This document shows positions 4,344-37,188 of a DNA stretch of 58,687 bases, in pieces. The notes beneath the pieces were generated by a model that saw nothing but the letters and a program-made list of their open reading frames with translations, made no database searches and was not told the origin of the DNA. The DNA comes from an uncultured Candidatus Saccharibacteria bacterium (lineage in GTDB: Bacteria; Patescibacteriota; WWE3; CAZQFB01): positions 1-58,687 of the forward strand of contig CAZQFB010000005.1 of assembly GCA_964592525.1 (NCBI GenBank). The letters are read 5' to 3'. Numbering within the stretch: position 1 is the stretch's first letter; each line of letters starts with the position of its first letter. Position numbers and translations under genes: made by a program.

Positions 4344-5300
4344 CTACTTCCAGTTTTCCTTTTTAATAAGTTCGTTAATTTGTTTAATAGAAGTTTCGCC
4401 CAAACCTCTAATGTTTAAGATTTCCTCTTCCGACAAACTGATTAAATCACCCAGCGTGTTTATTTTTGATTTCTTGAGGCTGTTAATAGTTCTAAGAGGT
4501 AAATCTAAATCTTCAACAGGTATACCAAAATCTTTGTCGCTTAGAGCTAATTCTTCTTGACTTGAACTCACAACCACAACCCTCTCCGGCAGTTTATCAT
4601 CAGTTACTGTTTGACCACTAATCCGGGCAAAGTAAGATACCAGCAAAGAAGATGCTTCGTTTAGAACTTCGCGAGGAGAAATAGAACCATCTGTTTTGAT
4701 CCTTAAGACCAGTTTATTGAGGTCAGTAGTTTCTCCCACACGAGTTTCCTCAACCTCATAAGAGACATGCACTACTGGTGAAAATATACTATCCACGGGC
4801 AAAACACCGATTTTAGGCTGCTCTAGCGCTTCCCGCGCCACATAACCATAGCCAGGCTCAACTAGTACTTGCGCACTAACCTTGGCTTTCTTGGTCGTTA
4901 GAGAGGCTAAATACTGATTGGGATTAATGATCTCCACCGAAGGATTAGGCGTAAAATCACCAGCAGTTACTTCTTTAATCCCCGAAGCTTCTAACTTTAA
5001 CACTACTGGTTTATCACCGTGCAAACGTACTCTAACTTTTTTAATATTAAGAACAAAACGTATAATATCCTCTTTCATACCCTCAACCGTTGCAAATTGG
5101 TGTGGCACCCCATCCATTCGTAACTCGGAAATAGCTGCTCCTTTAATTGACGATAAGAGCACTCGGCGTAACACATTACCTAAAGTGTAACCAAAACCAG
5201 TGGGGAGGGGGGACAGCGCAAAAACAGCTTCATTACCTAACTCACTCACAGTAGTAACGGAATAATCCATAAACCTTTTTATATTAGTATTATCATTCAT
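4344..5300 (-). CDS. rpoA: RNA polymerase alpha subunit
   Basis: PLPTGFGYTLGNVLRRVLLSS, DSIFSPV, C-terminal alpha-CTD. AAGGAG RBS. Confidence 0.98.
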   Translation of the reverse strand: MNDNTNIKRFMDYSVTTVSELGNEAVFALSPLPTGFGYTLGNVLRRVLLSSIKGAAISELRMDGVPHQFATVEGMKEDIIRFVLNIKKVRVRLHGDKPVVLKLEASGIKEVTAGDFTPNPSVEIINPNQYLASLTTKKAKVSAQVLVEPGYGYVAREALEQPKIGVLPVDSIFSPVVHVSYEVEETRVGETTDLNKLVLRIKTDGSISPREVLNEASSLLVSYFARISGQTVTDDKLPERVVVVSSSQEELALSDKDFGIPVEDLDLPLRTINSLKKSKINTLGDLISLSEEEILNIRGLGETSIKQINELIKKENWK

Positions 5301-8410: not shown

Positions 8411-8653
8411 TTAAAAACTAAACTCCCCCATTATTCCCTTAAGTTTTTTAGCTTGAGTCTTAAGTACCTCTTTTAATGCTTTGTCCAGGGCTTTTCTTAA
8501 ACGTTCATCTTTTTCGCCATCAACGGAAACCGCTAATACTTTATAATCCGCTCGGATTTTTAGTCTCACTCCTTCAGTCTCAACCTCGATAACTTCCTCT
8601 TGCAAAGCTTTTCTAGCAGCAAGAGCCTGTTTAATTTTATTTTTATCAAACAT
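8411..8653 (-). CDS. YbaB/EbfC-like nucleoid-associated protein
   Basis: Helix, then beta-strands (VEVETEGVRLKIRAD.KVLAVSVDG), then helix: the YbaB-like layout. 80 aa. Confidence 0.6.
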   Translation of the reverse strand: MFDKNKIKQALAARKALQEEVIEVETEGVRLKIRADYKVLAVSVDGEKDERLRKALDKALKEVLKTQAKKLKGIMGEFSF

Positions 8654-16686: not shown

Positions 16687-16970
16687 TATTTATCCCCCCC
16701 AATAGAAATACTTTCTCCTTTAGCTAATTGAACATAAGCTTTCTTCCAATCATCTAAGCGGGCATAGCGTCGGGTTCCAGAAACCCGACGTTGTTTACCA
16801 AGCAGACAAATAGTACGTACCGAAGATACTTTCGTGTGGTATGTTTTTTCTACTTCTTGAGCAATTTGTTGTTTGGAGGCTGAAACCGAAACAGCAAAAA
16901 CGTACACACCTTTACCTTCAACTGAAGCGCTTTTTTCACTTATTAATGGTTTAACTAAAATTCTTTTCAT
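16686..16970 (-). CDS. rplW: 50S ribosomal protein L23
   Basis: [25 protein letters not shown]. Confidence 0.96.
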
Positions 16971-17830
16971 AATTTACGTAAACAATCTAAAATCTCGTCA
17001 ACACTCGTTTTACCTAAGCCTTTAATAGCTAGTAATTCTTCGGGGGAAAGTAACCGCAATTCTTCAATATCGACCAATCCTGCTTTAGATAAAGCATTTA
17101 ACGACCGCGTAGACAAACCTAAAGAATCTAATAGCAGAGCACCAGCTGAAACTCCTGGGGTAGTCTTTTTAACCTTATCTTTATCGGGAGTGCCCCTCAT
17201 ACCAGTTTTGACCATCAAGCGCTGTTGGAGGGGCAACAGTGCTTCGGCACTTAGCAGAATATTATCATGCTGCATGATTAAAAAAGGGTTTAGTACCCTT
17301 TCTGGTACGATATTAACCAGGGGAAGATTTCGGACAGACAAAACTAAATCGGGTAAAGGTTCTTTAATAATAATTAAAGTTGAGCCCTTAAGTTCAGCTT
17401 TATCAATAAATTGCTGCATCAGCTTGACACTCTTATTTGTTTCAGGCACAGTTTGTAGCACCTTTAAATGGTTTTCGCTGACTCTTAGAGATAAAGAGTT
17501 TCGCAACGCAGCGCTAGTCATCTTTTTAGTCATTTTTAAAGCTTTAAAGTCACCTCTTGGACCATGTGTCACACCACCCCCAACCCATAATGGAGAACGG
17601 ATCGAGCCATGACGAGCGCGCCCTGACCCTTTCTGGCGCCACGGTTTTTTTCCGCCACCACGAACTTCAGCTCTCGTTTTAATAAACCCTCTGGCTTGTC
17701 TCCTTTTAGATAAAGCTACCCGTACCGCTTGGGTAAGTAATCCAAAATTGGGCGCTAAACCAAAAATGTTTTCCGGCACTTCCACTTGACTAACCAGCTG
17801 ACCTTGATTGTTGATGACATCAATTTTCAT
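16967..17830 (-). CDS. rplD: 50S ribosomal protein L4 fused to a C-terminal RNA polymerase alpha-CTD-like (HhH) domain, 287 aa
   Basis: L4 core KTRAEVRGGGKKPWRQKGSGRARHGS. A K/T/P-rich linker leads to LDSLGLSTRSLNALSKAG...SPEELLAIKGLGKTSVDEI. Start at ATG 17830. Confidence 0.96.
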   Translation of the reverse strand: MKIDVINNQGQLVSQVEVPENIFGLAPNFGLLTQAVRVALSKRRQARGFIKTRAEVRGGGKKPWRQKGSGRARHGSIRSPLWVGGGVTHGPRGDFKALKMTKKMTSAALRNSLSLRVSENHLKVLQTVPETNKSVKLMQQFIDKAELKGSTLIIIKEPLPDLVLSVRNLPLVNIVPERVLNPFLIMQHDNILLSAEALLPLQQRLMVKTGMRGTPDKDKVKKTTPGVSAGALLLDSLGLSTRSLNALSKAGLVDIEELRLLSPEELLAIKGLGKTSVDEILDCLRKL

Positions 17831-18281
17831 TAGCTTTGCCTTGTTGGTTATCAACTCCAATAAACACTTGAGTGCCCTTAGAACCAGGAATAGGACCCGA
17901 CACATAAAGATATGAATCTTCTTTTTGTAACTTAATCACTTTTACGCCCTTTCGGGTTTGGTATTGACCACCAAAGCGACCGGGCATTTTTTTCCCCTTG
18001 TAAACCCTCCCTGGAGTAGTGGTGCTACCAATCGAGCCGGGTTTCCTGTTCCAACCCGAACCATGAGTTGCTGGCCCTCCTGCAAATCCCCAACGTTTCA
18101 TCACTCCGGTAAACCCTCTCCCTTTAACCTTAGCTCTCAAACTTAAGCTGTCTCCGACGTTAAAAAGAGACAGGTCGTCTGTTTTCAACTGCACCACAGT
18201 GACTGGAATAACCACTCCTTCAGGAGAAAAAACCTGCGTCATAAAAATTTTTTTACCGATTAGCCAATTGTTTTTGTCCAT
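17820..18281 (-). CDS. rplC: 50S ribosomal protein L3, internally shortened (153 aa)
   Basis: IGKKIFMTQVF, KGRGFTGVMKRWGF, PGSIGS, PGRVYKGKKMPGR. ATG 18281 with AAAGGA RBS. Confidence 0.95.
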   Translation of the reverse strand: MDKNNWLIGKKIFMTQVFSPEGVVIPVTVVQLKTDDLSLFNVGDSLSLRAKVKGRGFTGVMKRWGFAGGPATHGSGWNRKPGSIGSTTTPGRVYKGKKMPGRFGGQYQTRKGVKVIKLQKEDSYLYVSGPIPGSKGTQVFIGVDNQQGKANEN

Positions 18282-18297
18282 TTTTCCTTTACTTACC

Positions 18298-18320
18298 AAA
18301 AAAGCGCCAAAACTGGCGCT
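18298..18320 (-). terminator. intrinsic terminator-like hairpin between rpsJ and rplC
   Basis: Minus strand reads AGCGCCA-GTTT-TGGCGCT-TTTTT: a 7-bp stem with a U tract. Confidence 0.6.
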
Positions 18321-18412
18321 AAAGACGACACCTAGTTTTGCCTTACGTTTTAAATACAACGTACATTGCTTTGCTTTTCATGCTGCTTCTTATTAATCAG
18401 CTGCTTAGACCA

Positions 18413-22302: not shown

Positions 22303-23496
22303 TTAACGGACCATAAGATTAATAGTTGTTGTGGTTGAATCTCCTCCCAAGTCATAAGCTACTGCTGTGAACACATGGCTACCACTTGAAGGCTTCTCGG
22401 TTAAAAAGTACCAGTTTTCCTCCACCTGTATCCCCGGACCCTCAAAACAAATCTCATGTTCGGTAAGATCGGATGACGTACGAACATCATAATAAGTGTT
22501 ATCACTAGCAAAAATATGAATGAACCCTAGATCAATTAAACAATCATCAACCACCCCAGACCAGTTACGATAATGGCGAAAGTTATAAGAGAAATTTTTT
22601 TCCATTACCTGTTTCTCTAACCACTGCCGACTGCTCTTACTCGCCTCTGATTGTTTTTGAAAATCAACCGCAACAGTATCACCAGACAAAGCCCTAGCAG
22701 ACACTACCCCAACTTCCCCACCATCAATAAAAAAATGGGTTGCCTGGACGTCTTCACCGGTAGCGAGTACCCTCGCTCTAAATTGCAGACCGTTTCCTCG
22801 CTGTTGCACTGAAAGGTAAAGCTCCGGACCCAACTCATCACTTTTAGCTAAAGGGCTAGCACCAGATATTTCGAGAGAAGCAAAAACCGTGTTTATGACG
22901 TCAGTATAATCATAATCATTGACGCTTAACAAAGCCTGAAAAAGGTAGGTTTGTTCACCATGAATCAAATAATAATCTTGTCGCACTATGTTTTCTTGGC
23001 TTTTTGGAGCTGCTGCCAAAAAGCGATGGTTGGTAAAGGTTGTAGAGGTCAAGGTCTCCACTTGTTCTGGTGCTTGTTGTTTAACCGTAATAATCAGTAC
23101 TGGTTGCGTACCAAGACGTAAATCATGCGTAGAATAAAAGAGATAATTAGCTTCGGGATATAGAGGATCGCTTGACCGCCTTTCCCAATAAGGCGGATAG
23201 TACAAGGTGGTTTCCTTACTAGCGCCAAATTCAAAGTGCTGCCAATTTTCTATTTTTGAGGGTTTACTTTCTAAGACACCCTCTTGGGCATTAACTAAAG
23301 TAACTGCCGCATCTATCTCTTTTCCGGTTTGCTGCCTAAATAGACCAATACCCAAGCCACAGGAAAAAAACAGTAAAACAAAAACAACACCATAAATCAC
23401 CCGCAACCAATTAATTGATCTTGAAAGGTTTAGGGGTGAAGTAGCAATAAACACCACCCTACGACCGGGTGGGAGTGCTTTCTTTCTTGTTGTCAT
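22303..23496 (-). CDS. membrane-anchored exported protein (PsbP-like segment plus Ig-like C-terminus) inserted in the str operon
   Basis: One N-terminal TM (VIYGVVFVLLFFSCGLGIGLF), a W..F...LYYPPYW motif, and a C-terminal GSHVFTAVAYD..G..TTTTINLMV Ig-like strand pattern. Confidence 0.6.
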   Translation of the reverse strand: MTTRKKALPPGRRVVFIATSPLNLSRSINWLRVIYGVVFVLLFFSCGLGIGLFRQQTGKEIDAAVTLVNAQEGVLESKPSKIENWQHFEFGASKETTLYYPPYWERRSSDPLYPEANYLFYSTHDLRLGTQPVLIITVKQQAPEQVETLTSTTFTNHRFLAAAPKSQENIVRQDYYLIHGEQTYLFQALLSVNDYDYTDVINTVFASLEISGASPLAKSDELGPELYLSVQQRGNGLQFRARVLATGEDVQATHFFIDGGEVGVVSARALSGDTVAVDFQKQSEASKSSRQWLEKQVMEKNFSYNFRHYRNWSGVVDDCLIDLGFIHIFASDNTYYDVRTSSDLTEHEICFEGPGIQVEENWYFLTEKPSSGSHVFTAVAYDLGGDSTTTTINLMVR

Positions 23497-34230: not shown

Positions 34231-37188
34231 ATGTCAGATAGTAACAGGAACAAGAGATCAGTAGTTGTGATCACAGGCAGTGCTCGTTTTTTAGGAGCAG
34301 CTGTGGCCAAAAAATTAAGCGATCAAAAAAAACAGTTAATTTTACTCGACAATCTGTCTGTGGGTGATTACCAAAATATCAGAATGCTCACTAGCCAAAG
34401 TAACGTTACTTTCATTAACACAGATATCACTAAAGGAATACCGCAATCAATCAGAGAGGTTGAGTATATTCTCCATTTAGCAGCCACTAATGTTAATTAT
34501 GGGAAGACTCCGCTCTCTAATGTTTACGACTTAAGTACTAATTCAACCGGAACGCAAAATTTATTGGAACTGGCGGAAAGAACAGGAGCTCGTTTTGTTT
34601 ATGCTTCCAGCATATTATTATATCGTTCACCTGTTGAAGATATTAGAAGAACGGTTAAGGAAGAAATATCTTTGTATGCTCACTTAGATGCCAAAAGATT
34701 TGGTGAGTCTTTAGTGCAAGAATATGGTGCTTTAAAAAATATAGACACCCGCATTGTCAGATTACCGCATCTTTATGGTTTAGGAATGAATTTGGCTAAC
34801 GACCAACCACTGGGCAGTATTCTTGAGCGATTAGTCCAAGAAGATGAGTTGGTTCTGCGGGGTGATGGCACAGATAAACATTATTATCTTCATATTAACG
34901 ATGCTGCAGACGGTTTAATTAGAGCCACCTTATCTCCCAAAGGAAAAGGTTTAATCATACCGCTAGTTACACCGAAGCAAGTAACACAACTCGATATCGT
35001 CAAAACGCTATCTGTTTTATTAGATAAAAAAATCATTGATGAGACCAAAGCAGCAAATTATCACGACCACTTCACGCCCATTGATAATCGAGAAACTTTA
35101 GAGATTATTGGCTGGGAACCAATTGTCTCTTTAAAAGAAGGTCTGACTGACACCATCAGAGATTTACAAAAAGCTAAGGCTGCCGATGAGTACTCAACTC
35201 CAGTAAAACAAATCACTGCAAAAAAAGAAAAACAGGCGAAATTTAAACCAACCTCTCTTTTAAAAATAAAAAAGCTCCCTAGTAACAAAATAAAGTTGCG
35301 CAAAGTACCGAAAATTAAAAGGGCAAAACTCTTACCCTTTTTAATTCTATCTTTTATCATAGGCTGTTTACTAGCACCTCCCAGCACCATTATTTACCAC
35401 ACGAGCAAAGGTGTTAAATATCTTACGGCAGCGCAAAATTCGCTGCAGGTTCTTGATTTTGACGAGGCTACCAATAAAGGAAACCTAGCCAAAAGTCATT
35501 TCCGCAAAGCAACCAAATCAGTGCAATTATTAACGAAAATAACCAATCCTCTTCATCGTTTTAACCAACTCCAGCTGACTAAGAGATTACTAACTGCCAG
35601 TAATTTGGCCGCCACTGCTTTAATCAGTAGCTGTGAGGGGGCTAGTATCATTACCGAACCATTACTGGCCACCCTACCAACGCTAGCCACCGGCACACCA
35701 CCAGAAAAGCCTATTACTTTAAGCAATATTCAAACGGCCAGCTCCCACTTGAAACTCGCAAAAAATAGTCTAGCTTTAGCGGAAGCCGAATTAAAAACCA
35801 TTAATTCTCAAAAATTACCGGAAATACTAGCAAGTAAGGCTGAAGAAACAGCTCAAGATATCTTAACCGCCAGACATCAAATAAGTAATTTCTTAACGAT
35901 AACCCAATCACTACCAGCTCTTCTAGGCTTTAATCAACCAACAACGTTATTGATCTTGTTACAGAACTCTAATGAGCTTAGAGCTAGTGGGGGGTTTATT
36001 GGTTCTTTTGCGCAAGTTAAGTTTGAAAACGGCTATATTGCCGAATTAAGAATAGACGATATTTATAATCCAGATGGTGCTTTAATTGAACAAGATATAA
36101 AAATTGATCCTCCAGAACCAATTAAGAATATTTTAGGCCAACCACGTTGGTTTTTAAGAGATGCCAATTGGGATGCTGATTTCACCGAAGCAGTAGAAGA
36201 TATTAGGCAATTTTATCTGTTAGAAACAGGTGTCTCTCTGGATGGTGTCCTCGCTATTGATTTATTCGCTATGGAAAACTTACTCAAGGTAATTGGTCCT
36301 TTAAAACTCTCCACGTACAACGAAGAAATTACGCAAGATAATTTATTTGAAAAAACAGAGCTTTATAGTGAAGCCGGTTTTTTACCTGGAGCAAACTATA
36401 AGAAAACCTTTATTGCTGCTCTTGGTCAACAAATGGTTAATGGGCTGGCTCAAATGGATAAGGTTCAGTATGCCCAACTAATATCCACTCTAAATCAAAC
36501 GCTCAATGAAAAACATATCCTCCTAAATTTTAAAATCCCAACACTCCAGACACTCGCGCTAGACAACAATTGGGCTGGAGAGATTAAAGGCATAAAGACT
36601 GATTTTGTCTATGTAGTGGATAGTAATTTAGGTGCTAACAAAGTGGATTATTACATTACCAGAACAAAAAGCTATGAGGTGTCACAAGATAGCCGGGAAG
36701 GAACCATGGCCGGAAAAATCATTTTAAATTATATTCATACTGGCACTTCAACTGCTTGGCCTGGTGGTAAATATAATAATTTTGTACGAATACTAGTACC
36801 GGAAGGAAGTCGTCTCACACAAGCTAGCCAGACGAGAAGTGATCTAGAAGAAAAAAATACAGATATCACTGAAACCATTACCATCAGCACGGAAGCAGGA
36901 AAAACTGTTTTTGCGCGCTTAATAGAACTTGATCCCGGTCAAAGCGTCACGCTCACACTCACTTACTTATTACCACCCCAGTTGGCAATAACCCCAGATA
37001 AAAAAGCCTATAATTTAACGGTGGTCAAGCAGCCAGGAATCAACGAGCAACCACTCTTAGTTACAATAATCACTCCTTTTGGTCGAGAAGTAAGTCAGAC
37101 TCTTCCCTCAATGGATAAGATAGGTAATAACTATCGATTATCTATTAACCAGAGGGAAGACTTGCAGTTATCCGTCGCATTAAACTAA
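34231..37188 (+). CDS. NAD-dependent epimerase/dehydratase-like domain, TM helix and extracellular DUF4012 domain (fusion)
   Basis: N-terminal extended-SDR features (VVITG, LLDNLSVG, ILHLAA, NSTGTQNLLELA). TM near aa 370. LLQNSNELRASGGFIGS, DIYNPDG and LRDANWDADF DUF4012 motifs. Confidence 0.8.
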   Translation: MSDSNRNKRSVVVITGSARFLGAAVAKKLSDQKKQLILLDNLSVGDYQNIRMLTSQSNVTFINTDITKGIPQSIREVEYILHLAATNVNYGKTPLSNVYDLSTNSTGTQNLLELAERTGARFVYASSILLYRSPVEDIRRTVKEEISLYAHLDAKRFGESLVQEYGALKNIDTRIVRLPHLYGLGMNLANDQPLGSILERLVQEDELVLRGDGTDKHYYLHINDAADGLIRATLSPKGKGLIIPLVTPKQVTQLDIVKTLSVLLDKKIIDETKAANYHDHFTPIDNRETLEIIGWEPIVSLKEGLTDTIRDLQKAKAADEYSTPVKQITAKKEKQAKFKPTSLLKIKKLPSNKIKLRKVPKIKRAKLLPFLILSFIIGCLLAPPSTIIYHTSKGVKYLTAAQNSLQVLDFDEATNKGNLAKSHFRKATKSVQLLTKITNPLHRFNQLQLTKRLLTASNLAATALISSCEGASIITEPLLATLPTLATGTPPEKPITLSNIQTASSHLKLAKNSLALAEAELKTINSQKLPEILASKAEETAQDILTARHQISNFLTITQSLPALLGFNQPTTLLILLQNSNELRASGGFIGSFAQVKFENGYIAELRIDDIYNPDGALIEQDIKIDPPEPIKNILGQPRWFLRDANWDADFTEAVEDIRQFYLLETGVSLDGVLAIDLFAMENLLKVIGPLKLSTYNEEITQDNLFEKTELYSEAGFLPGANYKKTFIAALGQQMVNGLAQMDKVQYAQLISTLNQTLNEKHILLNFKIPTLQTLALDNNWAGEIKGIKTDFVYVVDSNLGANKVDYYITRTKSYEVSQDSREGTMAGKIILNYIHTGTSTAWPGGKYNNFVRILVPEGSRLTQASQTRSDLEEKNTDITETITISTEAGKTVFARLIELDPGQSVTLTLTYLLPPQLAITPDKKAYNLTVVKQPGINEQPLLVTIITPFGREVSQTLPSMDKIGNNYRLSINQREDLQLSVALN

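Follow-up and report, generated by a model that had tools for sequence, protein, structure and literature searches.

A uL4 ribosomal protein with a tethered RNA polymerase alpha-CTD-type domain in an uncultured Candidatus Saccharibacteria bacterium

The ribosomal protein uL4 (L4) is universal and assembles early, and the C-terminal domain of the RNA polymerase alpha subunit (alpha-CTD) is the main mobile module by which the bacterial enzyme contacts DNA and activators. Here we describe an rplD gene in which the two are joined. The gene lies on a contig of 58,687 nucleotides (CAZQFB010000005.1, assembly GCA_964592525.1; the whole stretch is termed the window) from an uncultured Candidatus Saccharibacteria bacterium, and its product is a genuine uL4 that carries a paralogue of the alpha-CTD, tethered through a disordered linker of 22 amino acids. 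This is an apparently undescribed domain architecture of a universal ribosomal protein: no description of the fusion was found in the literature on the fusion itself, on PF03118 architectures, on alpha-CTD-like domains or on ribosome features of the candidate phyla radiation (CPR). Automated Pfam annotation already marks both domains, and the source annotation reads “50S ribosomal protein L4”.

An alpha-CTD module on a ribosomal protein would, if it acts as one, constitute a new kind of physical link from translation to transcription or DNA, and might, where genomes are very small and regulators few, offer a simple means of feedback or of targeting assembly. If the domain is a structural extension instead, it would provide a bacterial parallel to the eukaryotic uL4 extension and exemplify the re-use of a DNA-binding fold on the ribosome. 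The architecture recurs in several uncultured lineages with the DNA-binding face of the domain kept, and from these sequence features we infer its likely function.

The rplD gene is complete (16967..17830, minus strand) and encodes 287 amino acids followed by a stop codon, as defined by the open reading frame (ORF), its translation and a start aligned with homologues. The enclosing ORF spans 16967..17905 on the minus strand, and the homologue-supported start is the MKIDVINN at 17830. Three parts make up the protein, all encoded on the minus strand: the uL4 core with its tunnel “tentacle” loop KPWRQKGSGRARHGSIRSPLWVGGG (amino acids 1-209; 17204..17830), a linker of sequence GMRGTPDKDKVKKTTPGVSAGA (amino acids 210-231; 17138..17203), and an alpha-CTD-type domain with two helix-hairpin-helix motifs, (HhH)2 (amino acids 232-287; 16970..17137). 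The interval 16967-17137 thus comprises residues 232-287 and the stop codon.

The core is matched by the Pfam family Ribosomal_L4 (PF00573) from residue 16 to 203 (E 1.1e-48), covering positions 1-189 of the 190 in the profile. Bacterial uL4 chains are its best Foldseek matches, and the invariant uL4 residues KTR..VRGGG.KP..QKG.GR.R.GS.RSP.W.GGG are common to the window protein and its homologues. The C-terminal domain is matched by RNA_pol_A_CTD (PF03118) at residues 234-285, with 50.6 bits when the entire protein is scored and 55.1 bits when only the tail is, at a Pfam cut-off of 23.8 bits. The model HHH_5 reaches 22.9-26.4 bits on the same domain and stays under its own cut-off of 27 bits, and RNA_pol_A_CTD scores far above DUF4332, ComEA and generic HhH models. 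All significant sequence matches of the domain in the PDB are RpoA chains. A gapless BLASTP alignment to the RpoA CTD encoded in the window itself comprises 20 identical residues out of 53 (E 2e-9), and 20 of 51 positions are identical, likewise without gaps, to residues 257-307 of Escherichia coli K-12 RpoA. In E. coli numbering, R242 of the window protein corresponds to R265, N245 to N268, G273 to G296, K274 to K297 and S276 to S299; the equivalent of E302 is also kept.

Structure prediction agrees with the profile matches. In the AlphaFold2 model the linker (residues 210-231) has a predicted local distance difference test score (pLDDT) below 50, and the helices of the CTD, with values of about 80-88, form a confident five-helix bundle. 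Foldseek aligns the model to solved alpha-CTDs with a template modelling (TM) score of 0.77-0.82 and a root-mean-square deviation (rmsd) of 1.1 A. 7vpd_S is matched with TM 0.82/0.91 and an rmsd of 1.1 A, and the DNA-bound E. coli alpha-CTDs 1lb2_B and 3n97_B superimpose with an rmsd of 1.1 A over 54 residues. RAD51-type (HhH)2 domains are the next-best structural class. The N-terminal domain of RAD51/DMC1, HHH_5, ComEA and TfoX_C share the general (HhH)2 fold class with the window domain, but their profile scores are far lower, and the signature LxLSxR...GxGxKS of the window domain is that of the alpha-CTD.

These results bear out the initial annotation of this DNA, which had proposed, from the letters alone, an alpha-CTD-like domain of 56 residues on the C-terminus of L4 behind a linker of roughly 25 residues. 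Its hand count of 20 gapless identities in 53 positions was reproduced exactly, the alignment to E. coli K-12 RpoA agrees that the equivalents of R265, N268, G296 and S299 are retained, and two of the checks that it had proposed, a comparison of alpha-CTD with HhH profiles and a structure prediction, came out in favour of the alpha-CTD family.

The fused domain is therefore a member of the alpha-CTD homology family, but it is not an alpha subunit: it follows a Ribosomal_L4 domain, and rpoA is a separate gene that encodes the genuine alpha subunit with all its domains (4344..5300, minus strand; own CTD at about 4359..4517). A six-frame scan with hidden Markov models (HMMs) found alpha-CTD-type domains at two places in the window only, in RpoA and in L4. 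The two share 38% identity, and the identity of the L4 domain to its E. coli counterpart is 39%. They have the two-HhH helical fold and the attachment through a flexible linker in common, and differ in that the window domain is joined to uL4 rather than to the alpha N-terminal dimerisation domain (PF01193/PF01000). The RpoA CTD of the window (4359-4517, minus strand) has the sequence GLGETS in its second HhH hairpin, corresponding to N294G, K297E and K298T, a variant that among 121 RpoA sequences is common only to its four closest relatives (P0275-P0278). The genuine alpha-CTD of this lineage may, judging from these substitutions, be an atypical DNA binder.

A fusion known from metagenomes could be a chimeric assembly, a mis-called gene that joins two ORFs, or the 3' end of rpoA recently duplicated and without function. 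The carriers are mostly singletons from metagenome assemblies, and the domain of one homologue, P0216, is degenerate and no longer matches Pfam, as an artefactual or neutral origin would allow. Yet three independent assemblies, from three sequencing runs, are 100% identical to the window across the rplC-rplD-rplW junctions, and the rplD reading frame is continuous, with no stop codon and no frame change. Translational coupling connects rplD to both neighbours. The 3' end of rplC (L3; 17820..18281, minus strand) overlaps the rplD start by 11 nt, and the ATG of rplW (L23; 16686..16970, minus strand) overlaps the rplD stop codon in a 4-nt ATGA; the latter overlap implies translational coupling and hence that the CTD belongs to the L4 cistron of the operon. 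The GC content of the fused CTD (36%; RpoA CTD 31%, window 41%) is unremarkable. Furthermore, about 15 lineages share the architecture although the identity between their L4 cores is no higher than 27-66%, and nine of the ten other L4 tails tested still pass the RNA_pol_A_CTD cut-off, with 35-67 bits.

The DNA of the fused CTD is only 46% identical to that of the rpoA CTD, a divergence too great for a recent or chimeric copy. At the protein level, too, a recent duplication of the rpoA 3' end within the genome was rejected, since the 38% identity to the RpoA CTD of the window is no higher than that to unrelated RpoA CTDs (mean 37%, maximum 45%). Judged by this sequence divergence, the fusion is old. 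An artefactual or neutral origin thus appears exceedingly improbable and is effectively refuted already; the assembly error that the initial annotation had named as a possible pitfall did not materialize.

The distribution of the fusion was surveyed on several levels. In a set of 5.8 billion proteins, four of the best 120 L4 homologues combine PF00573 with PF03118: the window protein, P0002, P0030 and P0082, the last of which is annotated at its source only as L4, from a metagenome-assembled genome of Candidatus Dojkabacteria. A profile search of 1.84 billion cluster representatives (50% identity) returned 3,363 L4-like proteins at E<=1e-30, and 12 of the best 150 cover the profile to its end. 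Altogether, alignment and an independent HMM check yielded 15 fusion proteins. One of these, P0126 (L084, 10001-11077), harbours two tandem alpha-CTD-like domains separated by a spacer rich in Lys and Glu, an arrangement that recalls the two CTDs of the alpha dimer. All four fusion homologues whose contigs were examined lie in canonical S10 operons with the same gene order. A scan of GTDB species genomes with the full-length L4 gave 80 ordinary L4 loci, at most 42% identical to the query, and none with a CTD.

A profile of the CTD only, built from four sequences, gave four matches in the set of 5.8 billion proteins, and no split L4/CTD pair was found among the matches looked up. P0122 is a 3' fragment of rpoA adjoining rplQ, and P0124 is 85% identical to it. 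P0123 (L092, 1160-1453) is a stand-alone alpha-CTD/HhH-like protein of 97 amino acids, whose gene lies among consecutive very small, unannotated ORFs with a phage-like appearance.

The fusion is rare and patchily distributed, occurring in about 15 divergent L4 lineages: about 14 cluster representatives, out of the 3,363 L4-like ones, and 3 further proteins carry it. It is thus not widespread, a case for which the initial annotation had allowed. Comparison of the L4 cores delineates a Dojkabacteria-type clade (P0030, P0082, P0125, P0126 and P0127), in which every sampled member carries the fusion, and a looser group of the window protein, P0002 and P0129, whose CTDs are 48-55% identical. The carriers P0128 and P0130 are isolated, and their nearest relatives by L4 core (60-66% identity) are without the domain. 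P0224 has an L4 core that groups with Firmicutes-like L4s and appears to be a non-CPR carrier. The domain-free close relatives of P0128 and P0130, together with the Firmicutes-like P0224, indicate repeated gain or loss. A single clade of all L4-CTDs was not recovered: only sub-clades are evident, and the L4-CTDs are on average about 37% identical to each other, the same as to RpoA CTDs. A domain of 55 residues is too short to tell a single origin from multiple ones.

An alignment of 16 L4-CTDs with 121 RpoA CTDs, numbered according to E. coli, reveals which surfaces of the domain have been retained. The hydrophobic core (L260, L262, L270, I275, L281, I292, I303 and L307) is kept in both groups, with L260 present in all 16 L4-CTDs and L262 in 15. 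At the DNA-binding face, R265 is found in 15 of the 16 (98% of RpoA CTDs), G296 and a Ser, Ala or Thr at position 299 in all of them, and E302 in 12. K298 is present in 13 (93% of RpoA CTDs), and the other three, including the window protein, have K297. Position 294 is Gly in 15 of the 16 L4-CTDs and Asn in 83% of RpoA CTDs. The most variable positions of the L4-CTDs are 259, 261 and 283-291, which in E. coli alpha correspond to the patches that contact sigma and CAP; one clade has a deletion of one residue there. The L4-CTD family accordingly differs from the alpha-CTD in its Gly294, a relaxed position 268 and unconserved sigma/activator patches, to which the window protein adds a Thr at the K298 position. 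The 265 determinant of the alpha-CTD contacts the minor groove and the backbone of DNA. Since this determinant is kept while the sigma/activator patches vary, the nucleic-acid-binding face seems to be the surface that is still constrained. The linkers of the homologues range from 13 to 45 residues in length and from -8 (P0224) to +8 in net charge, a variation more in keeping with a flexible tether than with an extension ordered on rRNA.

We tentatively propose, at somewhat less than an even chance, that L4, and with it the 50S subunit, carries the fused domain as a leashed module for binding nucleic acid, most likely DNA. The domain would be mobile on its leash, like the alpha-CTD on RNA polymerase. 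The globular domain of uL4 lies on the solvent side of the 50S subunit (PMC4598080, PMC10931766), and the module would project from there and would also be carried by free L4. It might bind duplex nucleic acid, most likely DNA, with low sequence specificity; such a mode of binding is proposed because the 265 determinant is conserved and the sigma/activator patches are not. Among the functions suggested in the initial annotation, DNA binding alone gains indirect support, from this conserved face. L4 is among the earliest assembly proteins to bind 23S rRNA (PMC10931766). Speculatively, free L4 or early pre-50S particles could be held near transcribed DNA, and such tethering might aid the co-transcriptional assembly of 23S rRNA or provide feedback from ribosomal proteins to transcription.

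Several observations weigh against this proposal. N268, which is important for UP-element binding in E. coli, is present in only 8 of the 16 L4-CTDs, the window protein included, compared with 98% of the 121 RpoA CTDs. In the window protein itself, the DNA-contact lysine K298 is replaced by T275. The conservation of R265, G296 and S299 could in part be explained by the fold constraints of the HhH hairpins. Moreover, HhH-like domains can bind RNA, as in uS13, and rRNA is therefore a possible ligand. Lys-rich tails are also frequent at the C-terminus of CPR L4s that have no CTD (e.g., P0011, P0170, P0196 and P0222), and the C-terminus may thus merely be a permissive site for surface extensions; it appears to be a general hot-spot for them. 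Finally, nothing in the genomic context specifically tracks the fusion.

The Lys-rich tails also bear on an explanation in which the ribosome itself is the target. The linker and the CTD might lie on the solvent surface of the 50S subunit and bind rRNA or a neighbouring ribosomal protein, thus stabilizing or assembling the reduced CPR ribosome, which is without uL30 and often without bL9. The absence of uL30 from CPR bacteria is documented (PMC9297842), and in the window, too, L15 directly follows S5 with no L30 between them, as in CPR/Patescibacteria. In the window, Lys-rich, low-complexity C-terminal tails are found on L17 (3853-4329) and L22 (15095-15565) as well, and the linkers of several fusion proteins are rich in Lys. 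The eukaryotic uL4 C-terminal extension, which spans the solvent side, contacts eL18, uL30, ES7 and ES15 and is needed for assembly (PMC4598080), offers a precedent, as it, too, is appended at the C-terminus to the globular domain of uL4 on the solvent side. The two appendages are not homologous, however: the eukaryotic extension is elongated and ordered on eL18, uL30, ES7 and ES15, whereas the window L4 has a disordered linker and a compact globular domain of a DNA-binding type. Besides, uL30 has been lost in all CPR bacteria, yet the fusion is confined to a tiny minority; the linkers differ in length and charge more than a segment ordered on rRNA would lead one to expect; the AlphaFold model shows no docking of the domain onto the core; and one carrier has two tandem CTDs, while another is apparently not a CPR bacterium. 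On balance, we regard a structural role on the ribosome as possible, albeit unlikely.

As compared with a leashed module that binds nucleic acid, the domain could instead act through proteins. Its ligand might be a partner of the alpha-CTD (NusA or a transcription factor, for instance) or a lineage-specific protein, which it would either recruit to the ribosome or titrate from RNA polymerase. The initial annotation had put forward coupling and competition of this kind. The alpha-CTD is a known hub of protein interactions, and the fold matches of the window domain include complexes with CAP, Spx, RpaA, GlnR and sigma region 4, as well as NusA-containing paused complexes. A candidate partner is found in the Dojkabacteria-type clade, where a membrane-anchored coiled-coil ORF lies upstream of the fused rplD. 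Inserted after rplC, this ORF of 181-185 amino acids overlaps the start of rplD (L002, 5028-5573; L084, 9463-10020; L085, 3705-4250). Its product has a transmembrane helix at the N-terminus, then an acidic coiled-coil, and no significant Pfam match; the ORF is conserved in this clade of L4-CTD carriers and might encode a partner of the fused L4 that is specific to the clade. The ORF does not occur in the window, however, and conservation among the L4-CTDs is lowest at the surfaces that contact sigma and activators (259/261, 285-290). An adaptor or titration function of this kind strikes us as improbable.

A related scenario envisages a DNA- or factor-binding decoy, by which free L4 or the 50S subunit would share promoter-proximal DNA targets or partners with the alpha-CTD of RNA polymerase. 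Bacteria of reduced genome would thereby gain a direct feedback at the protein level, or a physical coupling, between ribosome supply and transcription, and the decoy would have evolved repeatedly by recruitment of the rpoA tail onto rplD. We consider it distinctly improbable. The autogenous control exerted by E. coli uL4, through NusA-dependent attenuation and translational repression, provides a precedent in which L4 affects the transcription machinery while off the ribosome (PMC10931766), and the initial annotation had drawn on it. The analogy turns out to be weak. The NusA-dependent attenuation of the S10 operon by L4 is confined to some gamma-proteobacteria (PMC10931766), a narrowness that also counts against a NusA-binding adaptor. 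Furthermore, the E. coli mechanism employs the ordinary globular domain and a structured S10 leader RNA, without a fused domain, and no such leader was detected in the window, where no Rfam family reaches its gathering score. The spacer between tuf and rpsJ measures 68 nt, and nusA is not among the genes of the 58.7-kb window.

The 131-nt spacer between rpsJ and rplC contains a terminator-like hairpin with a T-run, AGCGCCAGTTTTGGCGCTTTTTT (about 18296-18320, minus strand). The hairpin shows compensatory changes between the window and L001 and is also present in L002. Among CPR loci whose L4 is not fused, 7 of 13 have a similar hairpin just after rpsJ; outside the CPR, only about 2 of 58 loci do. 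The hairpin was therefore rejected as a mark of a fusion-specific mechanism. It may act as an attenuator within the S10 operon throughout the CPR.

The fused rplD of this CPR/Patescibacteria-like bacterium sits between rplC and rplW within the S10 operon (tuf-rpsJ-rplC-rplD-rplW-rplB), which is part of a long ribosomal super-operon on the minus strand comprising tuf, rpsJ, rplC, rplD, rplW, rplB and rpsS, and continuing to secY, adk, map, infA, rpsM, rpsK, rpsD, rpoA and rplQ. For rplC the likely start is MDKNNWLIGKK, and the ORF list has a TTG upstream at 18359. No second L4 gene was found within the 58.7-kb window.

Further ORFs of the window were noted. In the str operon, an ORF of 397 amino acids with no Pfam match lies between rpsG (S7) and fusA (EF-G) (22303-23496, minus strand), and in the region of the spc operon an ORF of 80 amino acids is located between secY and adk (8411-8653, minus strand). 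A protein of 985 amino acids (34231-37188, plus strand) combines an N-terminal NAD-dependent epimerase/dehydratase with a DUF4012 domain, an unusual architecture.

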